Shown: piece after piece, positions 27,964 to 45,057 of the stretch
How positions within the stretch are numbered: the first letter of the stretch is position 1
How the letters are laid out: each line of letters starts with the position of its first letter
UHGV virus genome: UHGV-1550212
Strand: one strand, 5' to 3'
Origin: a virus
Length of the DNA: 64,000 nucleotides
Made by a program: the position numbers and the translations under genes
The notes under the pieces: generated by a model
Database searches by the model: none
Seen by the model: the letters and a program-made list of their open reading frames with translations, nothing else
Told to the model about the DNA's origin: nothing

Positions 27964-28110
27964 ATTGTACTACAAAAATCCCAAATTTGCACACTTTGAT
28001 AATCAAAAGTGCAAACAAAATTCAAAGTTATATTGTACATCACAAAGTGCAAATTTGCACTTTGTGATGTTAAAATGCCCCATTGTACAATATTTTGTGC
28101 TATTTTGCAC
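27964..28110 (-). promoter_or_regulatory. Three tandem promoter-like motifs, the middle one embedded in a perfect 26-bp palindrome (28041-28066)
   Basis: attgtactacaaaaatcccaaatttgcac (27964-27992), attgtacatcacaaagtgcaaatttgcac (28032-28060), attgtacaatattttgtgctattttgcac (28082-28110); palindrome cacaaagtgcaaatttgcactttgtg. Confidence 0.5.
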
Positions 28111-28215: not shown

Positions 28216-28701
28216 TCATTTGTAGTGCTCAGTTATGTATGCTGAGCATAGCAATACAACTGATATGCAAATGACAATGTATGTTGGTGTAATCAGTGTC
28301 ACATTAAATAGCAATGCAGTCAATGCGCATACTGTTACTGATATAAGTGTTGAAATGAATACTGCATATGTACTAAACTTGCTTTTGAATAGACGCTCAA
28401 TGATGTACGTTGTTACAATAGATAGCAAGACTATGCATACAAATAACAGCAACCAAGTTGAGTTTGACGTTGTCGGCTCTTCAATAAATTGCAATGTTGC
28501 AGATGATACTTCAATGTTGTTTGGCGCTTGTAAAGTGCCACTTGCTGCATCTGCGTACATCACAGTTAAGTAGTGTCGTTGAATTTCTGCTGCGTCTACT
28601 TTATAGATTCTATGCCATGCAACATCTGATATGATGTATGTTGCAGCCATAAATGCAGCAATGCATAGCATATAAGAGCCAAACTTTGCAATCGGTTTCA
28701 T
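28216..28701 (-). CDS. Multi-pass membrane protein (about 4 predicted TM helices)
   Basis: Start at MKPIAKF (ATG 28701); hydrophobic runs YMLCIAAFMAATYIISDVAW, WLLLFVCIVLLSIVTTYII, VFISTLISVTVCALTALLF, IVICISVVLLCSAYI. Confidence 0.5.
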   Translation of the reverse strand: MKPIAKFGSYMLCIAAFMAATYIISDVAWHRIYKVDAAEIQRHYLTVMYADAASGTLQAPNNIEVSSATLQFIEEPTTSNSTWLLLFVCIVLLSIVTTYIIERLFKSKFSTYAVFISTLISVTVCALTALLFNVTLITPTYIVICISVVLLCSAYITEHYK

Positions 28702-28735
28702 GCAAATATATTTTTGTTTGTATATGTACATAAAA

Positions 28736-28765
28736 GAGCAAGTTCTCAATGTGGAGAACTTGCTC
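28736..28765 (-). terminator. Hairpin (12-bp stem gagcaagttctc / gagaacttgctc, loop aatgtg)
   Basis: Perfect inverted repeat downstream of the tRNA/non-coding region on the minus strand. Confidence 0.4.
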
Positions 28766-29159
28766 AGCTGACCTGTTGCCAGGTGAAAGCGTGGTGCAGC
28801 ACCTTGTGCTGCAATGGCTATGCTGCCATCGCCATAACGGGCTGAGCATTGCCCAGCATCATTACACGACCAGCTGCATTAAGCGTACGCTTTGCTTTGT
28901 TGAAAAATTTGCCAGTTATCTGGTATCTGCACATCTATTCAAGCGACCTACTATGCAATCAAATGCCTGTCGAGCCCAATGTTTGAGCAGTTGTTTGTCA
29001 GATGCTCAGCTGACTGCAGTCTTTCTGAGTGTATCAAGTTCAGCGATTCTGCATCTTTGCTAAATGGCAATAGTTCAGGTGGACTCGCCGAGAATCGAAC
29101 TCGGGTCTTACATAGCGCATCCTTGACTTGGTCCTGTAAACAGGGTTGTCAACATGCAT
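28766..29159 (-). ncRNA. Candidate structured non-coding RNA region downstream of the tRNA cluster, including a tRNA-like 3' half at about 29075-29105
   Basis: About 390 nt with no credible ORF, more GC-rich than surroundings, internal repeats (gctcagctgac twice) and a T-arm/acceptor-like CCGAGTTCGATTCTCGGCGAGTCCACC for which I could not find a pairing 5' acceptor strand. Confidence 0.25.
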
Positions 29160-29230
29160 TGCAATACGACAGGACTCGAACCTGCGACCTCGGATTGGAC
29201 GTCCGCGCTCTTACCGCTGAGCTACGTATT
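29160..29230 (-). tRNA. tRNA-Gly(UCC)-like, atypical (G at position 33, G1:G72 mismatch); possibly a pseudo-tRNA
   Basis: Minus strand GAATACG-TA-GCTCAGCGGTAAGAGC-GCGGA-CGTCCAA-TCCGA-GGTC-GCAGG-TTCGAGT-CCTGT-CGTATTG; canonical D and T arms, anticodon TCC. Confidence 0.5.
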
Positions 29231-29321
29231 CTTATCAATTGACTGCACTGCAATGCAATCAATCGTGCCAATGATATTTGACGCATAATTGCAGTTATGC
29301 GTAACAATTCAAATGTCATTG

Positions 29322-29394
29322 AGCCAACTGCAGGAGTCGAACCTGTAACCTGCTGATTACAAATCAGCTGCTCTGCCAATTGAGCTAAGTTGGC
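29322..29394 (-). tRNA. tRNA-Thr(UGU)
   Basis: GCCAACT-TA-GCTC-AATTGGCA-GAGC-A-GCTGA-TTTGTAA-TCAGC-AGGTT-ACAGG-TTCGACT-CCTGC-AGTTGGC-T; acceptor stem 7/7 paired. Confidence 0.8.
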
Positions 29395-29476
29395 ATAAAG
29401 TCGTTGGGCCATTGCAACCCAAACCTATCATCTTTGTCTAACCAAAGATGCAAGTGTTCTCTTACACCACGACTTG

Positions 29477-29548
29477 TAGCCGAACTTGGAGTCGAACCAA
29501 GCTTTCGAGAATGAAAATCTCGCGTCCTAACCGATAGACGAAACGGCC
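29477..29548 (-). tRNA. tRNA-Glu(UUC)
   Basis: Anticodon arm CGAGA-TTTTCAT-TCTCG, T arm CTTGG-TTCGACT-CCAAG, D loop with GG; acceptor stem has two mismatches at its base, so ends are +/- 2 nt. Confidence 0.65.
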
Positions 29549-29731
29549 AAGAGCAGTTCAAGTCTGCAGCATTGAACTGCGGAAACAATGCCTGTACGGG
29601 CAGCAAATTGTGCAGATACAGCGACATTGCAAAATCACACCGAACCAAGTTTGTGGCTCTTCTGTCTCATAAAAACAAGTAATCATTACACTTGGCACCA
29701 ATGATTCTGATGTAAAAATCGGTGTGTTATG

Positions 29732-29816
29732 CGGAGAGTAAGGGATTCGAACCCCTGGTACGTTGCCGTACAGTGGTTTTCAAGACCACCGCCATCGACC
29801 GCTCGGCCAACTCTCC
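29732..29816 (-). tRNA. tRNA-Ser(UGA), long variable arm
   Basis: GGAGAGT ... GTGGT-CTTGAAA-ACCAC, variable arm TGTACGGCAACGTACCA, T arm AGGGG-TTCGAAT-CCCTT, acceptor 3' ACTCTCC perfectly paired. Confidence 0.85.
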
Positions 29817-30010
29817 ATAAAACATTGCATAAGCATTCTTATCTCTTGATGAGACCAAGTAGCTAATTTGGCAAGTTTGTTATATCTATCGTGACTGTTG
29901 CAGTTTGTTTGTCACTCAATACACAAAACTTTCGAACATTCATTGACAGCACTGCAATATCGCTTTTTAAGCTTAGCCATCAATGTATTTATGCAATGTA
30001 TAACAATTCG

Positions 30011-30092
30011 TAGCCAAACCGGGACTTGAACCCAGACTCCTAATGGAACAACATTTTGAGTGTTGCGTGTCTACCAATTCCACCATTTGGCC
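30011..30092 (-). tRNA. tRNA-Leu(CAA), long variable arm
   Basis: Anticodon arm CAACA-CTCAAAA-TGTTG, variable arm about 13 nt, T arm CTGGG-TTCAAGT-CCCGG, acceptor GGCCAAA/TTTGGCT. Confidence 0.8.
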
Positions 30093-30182
30093 ATTTACAA
30101 ATGCAATCTATTTCACAACTGTTTGCATTTGCATTGTTTAACACTAAAAATATGATTCATCTAATCAAAAACCAGAGAATTG

Positions 30183-30256
30183 TAGGGTAGACAGGACTCA
30201 AACCTGCGACCACGTGGTCCCAAACCACGCATTCTAATCAACTGAACTACTACCCT
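30183..30256 (-). tRNA. tRNA-Pro(UGG)
   Basis: AGGGTAG-TA-GTTC-AGTTGATTA-GAAT-G-CGTGG-TTTGGGA-CCACG-TGGTC-GCAGG-TTTGAGT-CCTGT-CTACCCT-A. Confidence 0.85.
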
Positions 30257-30262
30257 AAGTAG

Positions 30263-30334
30263 TTGAACCGTCTGGACTCGAACCAGAAATGGCTGAACCA
30301 AAATCAGCTGTGTTACCGATTACACCACGATTCA
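30263..30334 (-). tRNA. tRNA-Gln(UUG)
   Basis: TGAATCG-TG-GTGT-AATCGGTA-ACAC-A-GCTGA-TTTTGGT-TCAGC-CATT-TCTGG-TTCGAGT-CCAGA-CGGTTCA-A. Confidence 0.85.
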
Positions 30335-30858: not shown

Positions 30859-31356
30859 TCATTCGATGTTACCAGATAATATCCGAATGGCATCCAATGC
30901 ATTTTCTCGTATTAAGCCAAACTTACCTATAACTTGAACAAAATGTTTGTCATTTTCAAATGTTGAGTCGTCAAGAATGACATATTGTTTGATGTTATGT
31001 TTATCAACAAGCGCAGGCACTGCAGCAAATCTGTCATAAAAGCCCTCAGCATAAATTGATGGCAACAAATAGCCCGGCATATTGCGCTTAAGCCACATTG
31101 TCTTGCAGTCATCAAGAATAGCCCAACTACTTATCAAGCAAATTGCGCCAACATCTGACATCTGACAAATGTATCTCAACCAGCCAACACAACGTTCGTC
31201 AAATAATTGACCAAACTCATCTCTCGACTGCACATCCATGTTTGCACGATGTTTTGACATGTGCAACATATTGAGATTATCTTGGCTATTCAAAACGCCA
31301 TCAATATCCAAGAAAATTACTTTGTCAGGCCAAATCACTTTGCTTGCTGCGTTCAT
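30859..31356 (-). CDS. HAD-superfamily hydrolase (possible 5'-nucleotidase-type phosphatase)
   Basis: HAD motif I VIFLDIDGVLNS and later ILDDS; 165 aa. Confidence 0.45.
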   Translation of the reverse strand: MNAASKVIWPDKVIFLDIDGVLNSQDNLNMLHMSKHRANMDVQSRDEFGQLFDERCVGWLRYICQMSDVGAICLISSWAILDDCKTMWLKRNMPGYLLPSIYAEGFYDRFAAVPALVDKHNIKQYVILDDSTFENDKHFVQVIGKFGLIRENALDAIRILSGNIE

Positions 31357-41766: not shown

Positions 41767-44700
41767 TCAATTACATGCTGAATGTCCGCAGTTGGTGCAT
41801 CGAACACAGCCATCAAACTTGACCATGTCACCGCCGCATTCAGGACACTTTGCATACATCTTTGAGCCATCTTGAATATGCAGTTTCAATGCGCGCCCAA
41901 TTGCTTTGCAGAATGTTCCGACAGATGCAAAGCTTTTTGCAGTTTGGTCGACAATTTCGCCAAGGTCAATGCCATTGCGAAGCATCGTTGAGTACAGTCG
42001 AGTAATTGTTTGCTGCTCGTCTGAACCAAGACGTTCTGAGATATTATCATAGTGCTGCAAGAATGACAAATTATCACCAAGCTTGTAGTGCTTCTTATCA
42101 GTCTTTGTGATTGTCGTTTGTTCAATGCCTTGCAACTTGTCGAATTCATCTTTGTCAAGTTCAAATGCAAAGATTTCATAAGGTCGACCGTCATCACAGC
42201 CTACAAGAATACACCACTTGCGCTTATACACTGACACGCAATACACTGCAGCAGGCAATACTGGTTTTCGTTTTGAGCGATGACCAGATTGCAAGATGTG
42301 CGACTTGTCTTTTGACTGCTTGTCATCTTTTACGAGAACACCTGCACGTGAGCCATCTCGATAAATTGTGCAGCCTTTGCAGCCAGATTTCCATGCAGTC
42401 AGATAAATTTCACGAACAAGCTCTTTTGTTGCAGAGTTTGGAATGTTGACCGTTACAGAAATTGACGAGTCAATGTATTTTTGCAATGCACCTTGCAATT
42501 TCACCTTGCCAATCCAGTCAACATCTTCAGTAGTTGCCTTGTAGTATGGTGATTGAATAAGCAATTCATCAATGACTGCTTGCGGAGCATTTGACAACCA
42601 AGCTTTGATGCGAGACATTTCTGCTTCTGACCATTCAATGCCAGTATCTTTGACAAGAGTAAATTTGCCATCGCCAAGCTGCACTCGTTTACAAATCCAC
42701 TGCATCAACGGATAATGAACTACAGCGTATTCAATGAACTTGTCACCAGTAGTCTCATCAATGAAGTTGATGTCGGCCTCATTATCAACTGCAGTTGGCT
42801 TACGACGACGTTTATGTAGTGGCATAAATACGGGCTCAATACCAGACGTTGTCTGAGTCATCAAAGCTGTAGTGCCTGTTGGTGCAATTGTGGTCGTGTT
42901 AATGTTTCGACGGCCAAATTGCTGATAAGTTTTGATGTGCTCATCATCAATCAGTTCAGATAGCATACGCTGGATGAACTTTGATTGCACATCTGTGTCA
43001 TAGTCAAATATTGCAAATGAGCCACGAATCTTTGCCAAGTCAATTGACGCTTCATAAGTCGCCTTTACAAGCCATTGTTGCATAGTGACTGCGAAGTCAA
43101 TTGACTCCTGCGAGCCATAACGCAAGCCAAGCATCGCCATTGCATCGCCAAGCGCAAGGAAGCCCATGCCATATCGACGAGTGTTTGTCAGTTTATCATA
43201 AACTTTGTGCCACAAGTCAAGTTCAGTCTTTTTGATGTCAAAGTCTTCTTTATCTGACCGAACCTTTGCAATGATTCGTTGCACTGCTTCAATTTCAAGC
43301 TGCACAAGGTCATCCATGATGACTGCACAGTCATATGTATCTTTGTAGAATGTCTCAAAGTCAAATGATGCATCAGCAGTCCAAGGATTAAGCACATATG
43401 CAGTCAAATTGCGATGCGACAAAATGCAGCTTGCATATGCAGCGAGAGGCTGTTCACCGCAATTTAGTGTATTGACTACTTGCTTGTCATTGACAGCAAT
43501 AAAGAAATTGTGGAAGTCTTCTACTGTGCCATTGTACACATCTGCTTTGTTCATGTGACGTGTTGCAACGACTTTGACAATTGCATCACCAGTAGTGTCA
43601 ATGTCTGCATATTTGCTGCAGTCACCTAACGCTGCGCAAGCATCACAGCAATATGCTTGTTCACGATTGTCATAAGAAACTTCGAATTCTTTACCACAGC
43701 ACTCGCATTGTTTGATAACTGTGTTTCGTTCTGTTTTTACAAGCTCGTCAGTCTTCAATGCAATTGATAGCTTATCTGCGCTTGGCATATCAATTGCCCA
43801 CAATGAGTCATTTGTTGCAAGGTCAATTGCATTCTTGAAATCGCCATTAGCAAGCCTGAACTCATGATTTGCTGTGCAATTGATGACATGGCCGTCATCA
43901 AGCACAATTTGAATGATTTGCGCATTATGTGCAGTCAATCTGGGTCGACGCATTGTGCGCACAACGAGCTTGCCATTAGAGTCAAGACAATATACTGGAA
44001 TGTCTTCACCACTATCAGCAAGCTCTTTGAATGTCTTCAAACCTGAGCCATCAGCAACAAGTACTTTTGTGTCACCTGTGAAGCATGGATTTGTTGAGCG
44101 CTCTTCATACATTTTGCCATATGCTTTCGAGTTCGACTCTTCCATGATACGGTCCCAGAAGAACACGCCGGGTTCTGCAGATGCCCATACGTTATCAACA
44201 ATTTTGTCAAACAATGCTTTTGCATCTGATGTCTTATGCAGCTCTTGGCCATTAGAGCCACGCCAAACATGCTCAAACTGTTGTTCTGCAAGCACTGCAC
44301 GCATAAATGCATCAGTAAGCTTGATTGAAATGTTTGCGCCTGTGATTTTCGTCAAGTCCTTTTTTGCATCAATGAACTTATCTGCGTCAGGATGCTCAAT
44401 TGACAATGACAACATCAATGCGCCACGCCTGCCATTTTGTGCAACTTCTTTTGTTGATGTTGAAAAACGTTCCATAAATGACACTACACCAGAAGTTGTA
44501 ATAGCACTGTTATGCACTTCTACGTCTTCTGGACGAATGTGCGACAAATCATGACCAACGCCACCACGACGCTTCATCAACTGAACTTGCTCTTCATCTG
44601 TTTTGAAGATGCCGCCATATGAATCTGCGTCATTGCCAATTACATAGCAATTTGACATTGACGTGTAACCGCCAAGACCAATACCAGCCATTGGAGAACC

Positions 44701-44988
44701 ACCAAGCACAAACCGCTTAAAAGGCTCAAGTAAATATGCAAGTCGTTCTTTTGACAATACACGTTTGCCTGTCTGTTCTTCAAATTGTGATTCGATGCGG
44801 TCAAATTCATTGACCCAGCGCTCATGCATATCAGACAATGAGTGTTCATACAAATTGTCTTTGTCATGATGCAAGTATTTTGACATGCATATGTCAGCAG
44901 CCATTGAATCGCCTGTAAATTCATGCGTCAGTGTAGTGTGCACTTCAGCATATTCAGGCGACCCAATTTGAATGGGATGTTTTGTCAT
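41767..44988 (-). CDS. nrdJ: Ribonucleotide reductase, class II-like (NrdJ-type) catalytic chain, interrupted by an intein
   Basis: RRGALMLSLSIEHPDADKFIDAK signature; catalytic motif split as ...ERSTNP | intein | CGEQPLAAY, giving NPCGEQPL after excision; C-terminal zinc ribbon CPECGG ... CVRCTNCGHSAC. Start at MTKHPIQ (ATG 44988). Confidence 0.75.
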   Translation of the reverse strand: MTKHPIQIGSPEYAEVHTTLTHEFTGDSMAADICMSKYLHHDKDNLYEHSLSDMHERWVNEFDRIESQFEEQTGKRVLSKERLAYLLEPFKRFVLGGSPMAGIGLGGYTSMSNCYVIGNDADSYGGIFKTDEEQVQLMKRRGGVGHDLSHIRPEDVEVHNSAITTSGVVSFMERFSTSTKEVAQNGRRGALMLSLSIEHPDADKFIDAKKDLTKITGANISIKLTDAFMRAVLAEQQFEHVWRGSNGQELHKTSDAKALFDKIVDNVWASAEPGVFFWDRIMEESNSKAYGKMYEERSTNPCFTGDTKVLVADGSGLKTFKELADSGEDIPVYCLDSNGKLVVRTMRRPRLTAHNAQIIQIVLDDGHVINCTANHEFRLANGDFKNAIDLATNDSLWAIDMPSADKLSIALKTDELVKTERNTVIKQCECCGKEFEVSYDNREQAYCCDACAALGDCSKYADIDTTGDAIVKVVATRHMNKADVYNGTVEDFHNFFIAVNDKQVVNTLNCGEQPLAAYASCILSHRNLTAYVLNPWTADASFDFETFYKDTYDCAVIMDDLVQLEIEAVQRIIAKVRSDKEDFDIKKTELDLWHKVYDKLTNTRRYGMGFLALGDAMAMLGLRYGSQESIDFAVTMQQWLVKATYEASIDLAKIRGSFAIFDYDTDVQSKFIQRMLSELIDDEHIKTYQQFGRRNINTTTIAPTGTTALMTQTTSGIEPVFMPLHKRRRKPTAVDNEADINFIDETTGDKFIEYAVVHYPLMQWICKRVQLGDGKFTLVKDTGIEWSEAEMSRIKAWLSNAPQAVIDELLIQSPYYKATTEDVDWIGKVKLQGALQKYIDSSISVTVNIPNSATKELVREIYLTAWKSGCKGCTIYRDGSRAGVLVKDDKQSKDKSHILQSGHRSKRKPVLPAAVYCVSVYKRKWCILVGCDDGRPYEIFAFELDKDEFDKLQGIEQTTITKTDKKHYKLGDNLSFLQHYDNISERLGSDEQQTITRLYSTMLRNGIDLGEIVDQTAKSFASVGTFCKAIGRALKLHIQDGSKMYAKCPECGGDMVKFDGCVRCTNCGHSACN
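43462..44085 (-). mobile_element. Intein (208 aa) inserted at the catalytic Cys of the reductase
   Basis: Starts CFTGDTKVLV (block A), block B TANHEF, block F DVYNGTVEDFHNFFIAV, ends ...VVNTLN followed by Cys +1; middle has a small Cys cluster (CECCGK ... CCDAC ... C), no LAGLIDADG motif seen. Confidence 0.65.
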
Positions 44989-45029
44989 TGTAACAGTGCA
45001 TTTAAGTGTTTTAACTGTTTTATGTATAA

Positions 45030-45057
45030 ATTGTACAACAATGGGCAAAATTTTGCA
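45030..45057 (-). promoter_or_regulatory. Promoter-like motif (sense TGATGCAAAATTTTGCCCATTGTTGTACAAT)
   Basis: About 40 nt upstream of the reductase ATG; its TGCAAA element lies inside the left arm of the hairpin at 45055-45108. Confidence 0.45.

Follow-up and report, generated by a model that had tools for sequence, protein, structure and literature searches.

Next to the tRNA genes of a large phage lies a segment that resembles half of a tRNA, which raises the question of what gene it belongs to. We analysed it within a 64,000-nt stretch of the virus genome UHGV-1550212 (the window), where a sequence-only reading had marked positions 28766-29159 as a structured stable RNA, a degenerate tRNA or an unrecognised structured element. 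We consider it very probable that the segment is a functional circularly permuted transfer-messenger RNA (tmRNA; ssrA) gene of this phage, encoded on the minus strand directly after seven tRNA genes. The idea of a structured stable RNA beside the tRNAs, with a tRNA-like 3' half, therefore stood, whereas the degenerate tRNA and the unrecognised element gave way to a known RNA class. The segment itself proved to be real, but the feature is slightly longer: the non-coding precursor runs on the minus strand from 29160 down to ~28732, where its terminator ends. With this identification, the annotation of the orphan tRNA half is settled as one end of a two-piece tmRNA gene.

At default thresholds, ARAGORN called a permuted tmRNA (tmRNA*) at 28727..29169, modelled with an acceptor stem (7 bp), a D-loop analogue (12 nt), P2a (8 bp), a T-arm (5-bp stem, 7-nt loop) and the tag frame GKFFNKAKRTLNAAGRVMMLGNAQPVMAMAA-stop. 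The covariance-model search that the sequence-only reading had proposed also pointed to this class. In a permissive Rfam search covering 28600-29300 (701 nt), the model RF04321 (tmRNA_permuted) aligned over its full length (model 1-213, window 28818..29138) with 30.8 bits and E = 2e-4. The elements are arranged in permuted order: P2 strands, T-arm and acceptor 3' strand are followed by a ~100-nt spacer and then by acceptor 5' strand, D-loop analogue, P2 strands, tag frame, two hairpins and terminator (3' half 29116..29078, spacer 29077..28978, 5' half from 28977). A T-arm plus acceptor-like sequence had been recognised before and is indeed present at 29104..29078 on the minus strand. The accompanying claim that a matching 5' acceptor strand is missing was wrong: GGGCUCG at 28977..28971, ~100 nt downstream of the T-arm, pairs perfectly with CGAGUCC over 7 bp, including a G3·U70 wobble. 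This strand lies downstream because the gene is circularly permuted.

When the two tRNA-like halves are paired, they form an alanine-type acceptor stem (G3·U70, A73) stacked on the T-arm, and a three-part P2 helix. There is no anticodon arm; its place is taken by the 12-nt D-loop analogue, followed by the long P2 that joins the halves. All proposed helices were fully paired at their exact coordinates, and the minimum-energy structure obtained by cofolding the two predicted pieces consisted of P1, the T-arm, P2a, P2b and P2c. The 429-nt precursor folded with a z-score of -3.53 (0 of 100 shuffles were as stable), and its centroid fold recovered P1, the T-arm, P2a and P2b. Thus, folding together with comparative sequences, which had been suggested as a check, supported a structured RNA, with 12 clean compensatory double changes in the divergent allele described below. 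Feature coordinates are compiled in Table 1.

Table 1. Features of the predicted permuted tmRNA gene and its surroundings (window positions unless a contig is named)
Feature	Position	Strand	Basis
Seven tRNA genes (Gln, Pro, Leu, Ser, Glu, Thr, Gly), upstream of the tmRNA gene	29161..30334	-	ARAGORN/Rfam searches
Whole predicted permuted tmRNA (ssrA) precursor, starting right behind tRNA-Gly and ending with the terminator U-tract	28732..29160	-	ARAGORN, RF04321, fold z-score
Acceptor piece, 81 nt + CCA	29080..29160	-	ARAGORN, cofold; predicted piece boundaries
P2c, acceptor-piece strand UGCAUGUU, pairing with 28935..28928	29151..29158	-	Cofold; 8/8 pairs
Small acceptor-piece hairpin CCUG-UUUA-CAGG	29133..29144	-	Folding
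P2b, acceptor-piece strand UCAAGGAU, pairing with 28947..28939 (8 bp, one bulged G)	29119..29126	-	Cofold, centroid fold, pair check
P2a, acceptor-piece strand GCUAUGUAA, pairing with 28958..28950	29108..29116	-	ARAGORN model, centroid fold; 9/9 pairs
T-arm CCGAG / UUCGAUU / CUCGG, 5-bp stem, 7-nt loop of the UUCGAnU type	29088..29104	-	Rfam, ARAGORN, pair check
Acceptor 3' strand CGAGUCC (29087..29081), discriminator A73 (29080), CC (29079..29078)	29078..29087	-	
Intervening spacer with internal hairpins, presumably excised	28978..29077	-	
Candidate H-type pseudoknot in the spacer, two overlapping 5-bp stems	S1 29014..29010/29001..28997, S2 29007..29003/28989..28985	-	
Acceptor 5' strand GGGCUCG, G1 = 28977, presumed RNase P site	28971..28977	-	Rfam, ARAGORN, pair check
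D-loop analogue, 12 nt, ACAGGCAUUUGA (RF04321 consensus aAaUGGuUUCGA)	28959..28970	-	ARAGORN; alignment to RF04321 consensus
Coding-piece strands P2a (28958..28950), P2b (28947..28939), P2c (28935..28928)	28928..28958	-	Cofold, centroid fold, pair check
4-bp hairpin CCAG-AUAA-CUGG at the expected place of pseudoknot PK1, overlapping the putative resume codon	28912..28923	-	Cofold, pair check
Predicted tag frame: resume codon GGC (28913..28911), 31 codons GKFFNKAKRTLNAAGRVMMLGNAQPVMAMAA, stop UAG (28820..28818)	28818..28913	-	
Hairpin H5 GCAGCAC-AAG-GUGCUGC, just past the stop codon	28796..28812	-	Folding, pair check
Hairpin H6 CCUG-GCAA-CAGG, GNRA loop	28772..28783	-	Centroid fold, pair check
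Intrinsic-terminator-like hairpin, 12 bp, + UUUU	28732..28765	-	
12-nt direct repeat TGCTCAGCTGAC, copy 1, in the spacer	29003-29014		
12-nt direct repeat TGCTCAGCTGAC, copy 2, at the terminator foot	28761-28772	+	
Extra ORFs in or near the tRNA cluster of other strains	L040:1297-2172, L043:1371-2192, L044:2752-3034		

The tag frame has no start codon and encodes a peptide running GKFF…PVMAMAA-stop, with a hydrophobic ...AA before the stop. Its maintenance could be followed in eight copies of the gene from about eight metagenome samples, six of the type found in the window and two of a divergent type (L-type; L001 and L037). The relative L001/L002, a 175.5-kb IMG/VR contig, was 91% identical to the window over a 22-kb global alignment, and exact-protein look-ups yielded further strains from other samples (L037, L038, L039, L040, L043 and L044). 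Another two (L030 and L035) were identical to the window, and the tmRNA element was present in all retrieved strains. Across the six window-type copies, the tRNA-like domain and P2 strands (~125 nt) contained no variable site, the spacer (102 nt) contained 6, the tag frame (96 nt) 3 and the 3' region (85 nt) 4. All tag-frame variants were third-position synonymous (GGC>GGU at codon 1, AAU>AAC at codon 12 and GCA>GCC at codon 30), and in the other two frames the same changes would be non-synonymous or create stops. The predicted tag peptide was identical in 8/8 copies. These results indicated that purifying selection acts on the peptide encoded by the tag frame and, as the change at codon 12 is synonymous, they support translation from this codon on at the latest. 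Since all variable frame sites are synonymous, the strain comparison provides unusually direct in silico evidence for tag translation. Changes in the spacer and in H6 also kept pairing, by G·U pairs or a loop change that preserves the GNRA type: in L044, H6 carries a GUAA loop and a G·U closing pair, and pairing of the spacer stem S1 is kept via a C>U change. In L040, the H6 loop reads ACAA.

In the L-type allele, both tRNA-like halves differ at about half of their positions, and the tag frame is unchanged. In a hand-registered structure of 43 pairs, 25 were unchanged, 2 were changed on one side, 15 were changed on both sides and 1 was broken. Three of the 15 double changes resulted from a register shift in a small hairpin, which left 12 clean compensatory doubles, distributed over P1 (3), the T-stem (2), the acceptor-piece hairpin (4), a local stem (1) and the spacer stem S2 (2). 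The acceptor stem thereby became GGGGGUG/CACCUCC with G3·U70 kept, the T-stem CCGCC/GGCGG, and the acceptor-piece hairpin UUGC-GAAA-GCAA, with both sides changed in 4/4 pairs. P2c retained its pairing through two one-sided changes. The hairpin at the expected place of PK1 reads GCCA/UGGC in a shifted register; the PK1 stretch is invariant between the alleles, so covariation could not be used there. A consistent L-type P2a/P2b could not be derived, as the ARAGORN model and the minimum-energy model disagree, and the status of this allele is uncertain.

A protein-coding role of the segment was rejected. The longest ORF (open reading frame; 104 aa, 28749-29063, plus strand), which lies antisense to the tmRNA, is cut short by a stop codon in L043 and disrupted by frameshifts in L001 and L037, and the substitutions that it shows in the other strains are non-synonymous. 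This bears out the earlier statement that no plausible ORF is present. A protein gene at the homologous position of a related phage had been named as evidence that would speak against a structured RNA; the relatives instead keep the RNA features and break the ORF. The deviating composition noted before was likewise confirmed, with a G+C content of ~0.47 over 28700-29300 compared with ~0.40 for the genome and 0.27-0.36 just downstream.

Several observations weigh against a functional permuted tmRNA. The RF04321 score stayed below the gathering score of 47 bits; it is lowered by large insertions in the spacer and tag region, which are penalised in the alignment. No tmRNA family reached its Rfam gathering score in the window. 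Of the subtype models, alpha (12.7 bits) and beta (11.5 bits) matched the T-arm/acceptor core only, and no match to the cyano model was listed in the permissive search. Between P2 and the resume codon we found no convincing PK1, only the 4-bp hairpin, and PK2-PK4 are absent, with two simple hairpins in their place. The 31-aa tag is unusually long, and its resume codon is unsettled: GGC at 28913 is most likely, and the in-frame GCA at 28895..28893, which would give a 25-aa tag, is favoured by the Rfam alignment. The CCA end is only partially encoded, with ACC after the acceptor 3' strand, U as the next base and no terminal A; CCA is encoded in none of the seven neighbouring tRNA genes either, which suggests post-transcriptional CCA addition. 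A SmpB domain was not found in the 58 window ORFs of at least 90 aa, so that tmRNA function would rest on SmpB of the host, which normally supplies it. In the L-type allele, the T-loop measures 6 nt and P2a forms poorly; this allele passed ARAGORN only at 95% of the thresholds, flagged as a possible pseudogene. Finally, expression, processing and charging of the permuted tmRNA are predictions from sequence.

Some of these features could also be read as signs of a decoy for SmpB or the ribosome, in which the tRNA-like domain titrates host SmpB or blocks trans-translation and the frame plays no role. Such an RNA has a precedent in mycobacteriophage DS6A, whose RNA consisting only of a tRNA-like domain was reported to inhibit tmRNA (PMC4131195), and the missing PK1 to PK4 and the partial burial of the putative resume codon in a hairpin would fit it. 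We nevertheless regard a decoy as improbable, given that the 31-codon frame encodes an identical peptide in eight copies, that its three variable sites are synonymous only in this frame, which would be unexpected if it were untranslated, and that it ends in a canonical hydrophobic ...AMAA-stop. A decaying relic, i.e., a host-derived tmRNA gene or attachment-site fragment that has lost its function, would account for the Rfam score under threshold and for the imperfect look of the L-type allele, and tmRNA 3' fragments are frequent in phages that integrate into ssrA (PMC9004378). Decay, however, is hard to reconcile with the presence of both tRNA-like halves, tag frame and terminator in intact form, or with the lack of variation in the tRNA-like domain of six copies beside a variable spacer, and with the compensatory nature of substitutions. 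Moreover, no integrase was found among the genes neighbouring the tmRNA, and two scans of 185,579 representative bacterial genomes with the tRNA-like-domain and tag-end sequences gave no match. We thus judged a relic to be very improbable, and rejected an attachment-site fragment in particular because the RNA gene is complete and an integrase is absent among its neighbours.

It is extremely improbable that the segment is another structured non-coding RNA (for instance a counterpart of the stable RNAs of T4) or a gene for a small protein, with a merely coincidental likeness to a tmRNA. This possibility had been put forward in the sequence-only reading, and the 12-nt repeat and the candidate spacer pseudoknot are not standard tmRNA features. 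On the other hand, several elements stand together in their canonical relative positions: the T-arm, the 7-bp acceptor stem containing G3·U70, the 12-nt D-loop analogue with the 9-bp P2a after it, and a downstream frame that closes with AMAA-stop. Such a combination is very unlikely to arise by chance. The antisense ORF is disrupted in relatives, and no other Rfam family matched the segment convincingly (best overlapping non-tmRNA matches 12-19 bits, E of at least 0.5). A functional permuted tmRNA therefore remains our preferred interpretation.

Two further sequence features of the gene were considered as candidates. The internal repeat reported earlier is real and in fact a 12-mer, TGCTCAGCTGAC. 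An exact direct repeat of at least 12 nt occurred in 14 of 2000 shuffles of the gene. Its interpretation as a functional repeat was weakened by a C>T change at position 28770 in 4/8 strains. A 9-bp complementarity between spacer and tag frame (29010..29002 with 28849..28841) was set aside, as it is lost in the L-type allele.

Judging by strand and spacing, the seven tRNA genes and the tmRNA gene are probably co-transcribed. If the gene works like established two-piece tmRNAs (Keiler, Shapiro and Williams 2000, as cited in PMC9004378), the 5' end of the acceptor piece would be set free when tRNA-Gly, ending at 29161, is processed at its 3' side. Host tRNA-processing enzymes would cut the precursor, with RNase P acting at G28977, and 3' trimming after A29080 would be followed by CCA completion and loss of the spacer. 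Two RNAs are predicted to result, the acceptor piece (~84 nt) and the coding piece (~246 nt), which P1 and P2 would keep together. This complex would be charged with alanine via G3·U70 and A73 and, together with host SmpB and EF-Tu, could enter ribosomes stalled on broken mRNAs. Translation would then resume at GGC and add a tag ending in ...PVMAMAA, by which the product would be marked for proteolysis and the ribosome freed. A likely benefit to the phage would be that ribosomes are kept available while host and phage mRNAs are degraded during infection.

Phage tmRNAs have been known since those of mycobacteriophages and Bacillus phage G (PMC4131195), and have also been recorded in huge phages (PMC7162821). 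A catalogue of the two-piece forms lists 53 unique ARAGORN calls, mostly from marine or aquatic phages, among them the OM43 phage Melnitz, the Pelagibacter phages HTVC008M and Mosig, Caulobacter phiCbK-like phages and cyanophages, with Cellulophaga phi4:1 as one Bacteroidetes phage (PMC9004378). Since phage two-piece tmRNAs are already documented, the window copy is a new, divergent case. It shares with them a permuted ssrA gene near tRNA genes in a large T4-like or jumbo lytic-type phage, a complete tRNA-like domain, a tag ending in AA-stop and the ARAGORN call tmRNA*. Unlike them, it stems from apparent gut samples with Bacteroidota-infecting phages as nearest isolates, has a much longer tag (31 aa) and only two hairpins in the post-tag region. 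None of the Rfam riboswitch families attained its gathering score, and blastn detected no similarity to deposited phages beyond tRNA matches, neither to the tmRNA nor from a near relative of the genome.

Bacterial two-piece tmRNAs occur in Alphaproteobacteria, some Betaproteobacteria and Cyanobacteria (RF01849, RF01850 and RF01851; PMC11915505). The window copy resembles them in its permuted order, its P1, T-arm and P2a/b/c, and the predicted maturation into two pieces, one acceptor and one coding. It differs in that the subtype models scored at most 12.7 bits, so that none of the three lineages fits, in that PK1 and later pseudoknots are not recognisable, and in that the tag begins with Gly. 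The tRNA-like domains of permuted tmRNAs from alpha-, beta- and cyanobacterial lineages served to build RF04321, which reportedly finds all permuted tmRNAs of the 2025 database (PMC11915505). Because the window copy misses the cut-off of this model, it is more divergent, or richer in insertions, than the permuted tmRNAs of that database, and it would escape threshold-based Rfam annotation. Less ordinary here are the apparent gut and Bacteroidota-type setting, the lack of fit to the three bacterial lineages, the long tag with a reduced body, and the two alleles of the tRNA-like domain. A two-piece tmRNA in an apparently human-gut large phage extends beyond the known marine or aquatic alpha, beta and cyano setting.

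Phage T4 also encodes small stable RNAs in its tRNA cluster. These have no known function and are not tmRNAs. The window element resembles them in being a non-tRNA RNA gene among the tRNA genes of a phage, and its maturation probably relies on the same processing enzymes; it differs in bearing all the sequence hallmarks of a tmRNA.

Besides gp23-type capsid protein, T4-type terminase and both topoisomerase II subunits, the window encodes a clamp loader, an NAD-dependent ligase and a ribonucleotide reductase that carries an intein-like insertion. By protein, the nearest deposited phages are Bacteroidota jumbo phages (Chryseobacterium MA9V-1/2, Tenacibaculum, Flavobacterium and Prevotella Lak phages) and phage PAU, at only 26-37% identity. 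The phage probably is a distantly T4-like gut phage of ~128-181 kb, the 64-kb window representing only about a third of its genome. Exact-protein look-ups placed the window strain on ENA scaffold ZEEV15-1_SAMEA3664939 and in run ERR1137265; from the sample naming, we infer a human-gut cohort as the source. A Bacteroidota host is plausible. It fits the Gly-first tag, as in the native Bacteroides tag GETNYALAA, and a standard tmRNA with a near-identical resume context in a distant relative, L008 (158-kb contig, locus G+C 21%, topoisomerase II 32% identical).

This one-piece tmRNA (L008:18430-18776; tag GKETFAFAA) is located ~6.6 kb downstream of the topoisomerase II gene, a position comparable to that of the permuted gene in the window, which also lies downstream of a topoisomerase II gene. 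Both have a Gly resume codon in an AUAAxU-GGC-AAA context (AUAACU-GGC-AAA in the window, AUAAAU-GGC-AAA in L008), and the tag in the window ends in A-x-A-A like those of L008 and Bacteroides. The L008 and Bacteroides tmRNAs, in contrast, are unpermuted with a pseudoknot-rich body, and the tag in the window is three times longer. L008 was the only one of the topoisomerase II relatives with a standard tmRNA; among 19 such loci and Chryseobacterium phage MA9V-1, no permuted tmRNA was detected even at relaxed ARAGORN thresholds. Other searches added little: in IMG/VR DNA, a T-arm/acceptor pattern found no match and a tag-end pattern only one close relative, a metagenome scan with a flanking protein returned two contigs, neither extending to the tmRNA element, and exact look-ups of several window proteins gave no record or the window's own strain only.

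One could go further and propose jointly that the permutation originated independently in this Bacteroidota-phage-related gut lineage, that the 12-nt repeat is the footprint of a tandem duplication, and that the alleles of the tRNA-like domain and the tRNAs are under diversifying selection. In this reading, the lineage has relatives with standard one-piece tmRNAs, and sharply different, structure-preserving alleles would be favoured by host factors that bind or cleave on recognising tRNA bodies, such as defence nucleases, synthetases and SmpB. We regard this combination as doubtful; since the similarity of the two repeat copies stops at 12 nt, the tandem-duplication footprint remains speculation.

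Sharply different alleles were also seen among the neighbouring tRNA genes, which reassort among otherwise ~91-99% identical strains (window versus L001, L037-L040, L043 and L044). Over 22 kb, substitution-type patches of low identity between the window and L001 fell on tRNA-Pro, tRNA-Ser and the two tRNA-like halves of the tmRNA. tRNA-Thr(UGU) exists as a 74-nt form or an 86-nt form with a long variable arm, and tRNA-Pro(UGG) and tRNA-Gln(UUG) each have two very different bodies. tRNA-Ser occurs in canonical variants and in a further, selenocysteine-like form. Anticodon loops and flanks are conserved, and different combinations occur on near-identical flanks. In L001 (4061-4143) and L037, the canonical tRNA-Ser(UGA) (window 29731-29816) is replaced by an RNA that scored best as selenocysteine type (RF01852, 41.8 bits, gathering score 47), with a 6-bp D-stem, a 4-nt loop and the Ser anticodon UGA kept. 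In tRNA-Gly(UCC) (29161-29231, minus strand), whose gene immediately precedes the tmRNA, a G1·G72 mismatch tops the acceptor stem; this tRNA is identical in 8/8 strains. Some strains carry an extra ORF of 273-291 aa between tRNA-Thr and tRNA-Glu, or a DUF559/MTES_1575 endonuclease-like ORF beside the cluster; these ORFs may be mobile endonucleases driving cassette exchange. The pattern points to cassette-like recombination, in which homing endonucleases may play the driving part, and to the retention of several alleles in the population. A population that swaps the tRNA-like domain of its tmRNA and its tRNA bodies as cassettes could be tractable for studying selection on phage tRNA bodies.

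Just upstream of the tRNA cluster, the gene at 30859-31356 (minus strand) encodes a HAD domain that belongs to the 'Swiss Army Knife' RNA-repair type (PF18143, E = 2e-14), hinting at a connection of RNA repair with the RNA gene cluster. Neither a CCA-adding enzyme nor an RNA ligase was found among the 58 window ORFs. The intein-like insertion lies in the large subunit of the ribonucleotide reductase (41767-45048, minus strand), where Intein_splicing matched residues 338-517 with 30.8 bits, under the Pfam cut-off of 35.8. A perfect 34-nt palindrome, ACATCACAAAGTGCAAA|TTTGCACTTTGTGATGT, is present at 28037-28070 in an A+T-rich intergenic region with many TTTGCA/TGCAAA motifs; this region is an indel hotspot between strains and may be an operator or promoter element.

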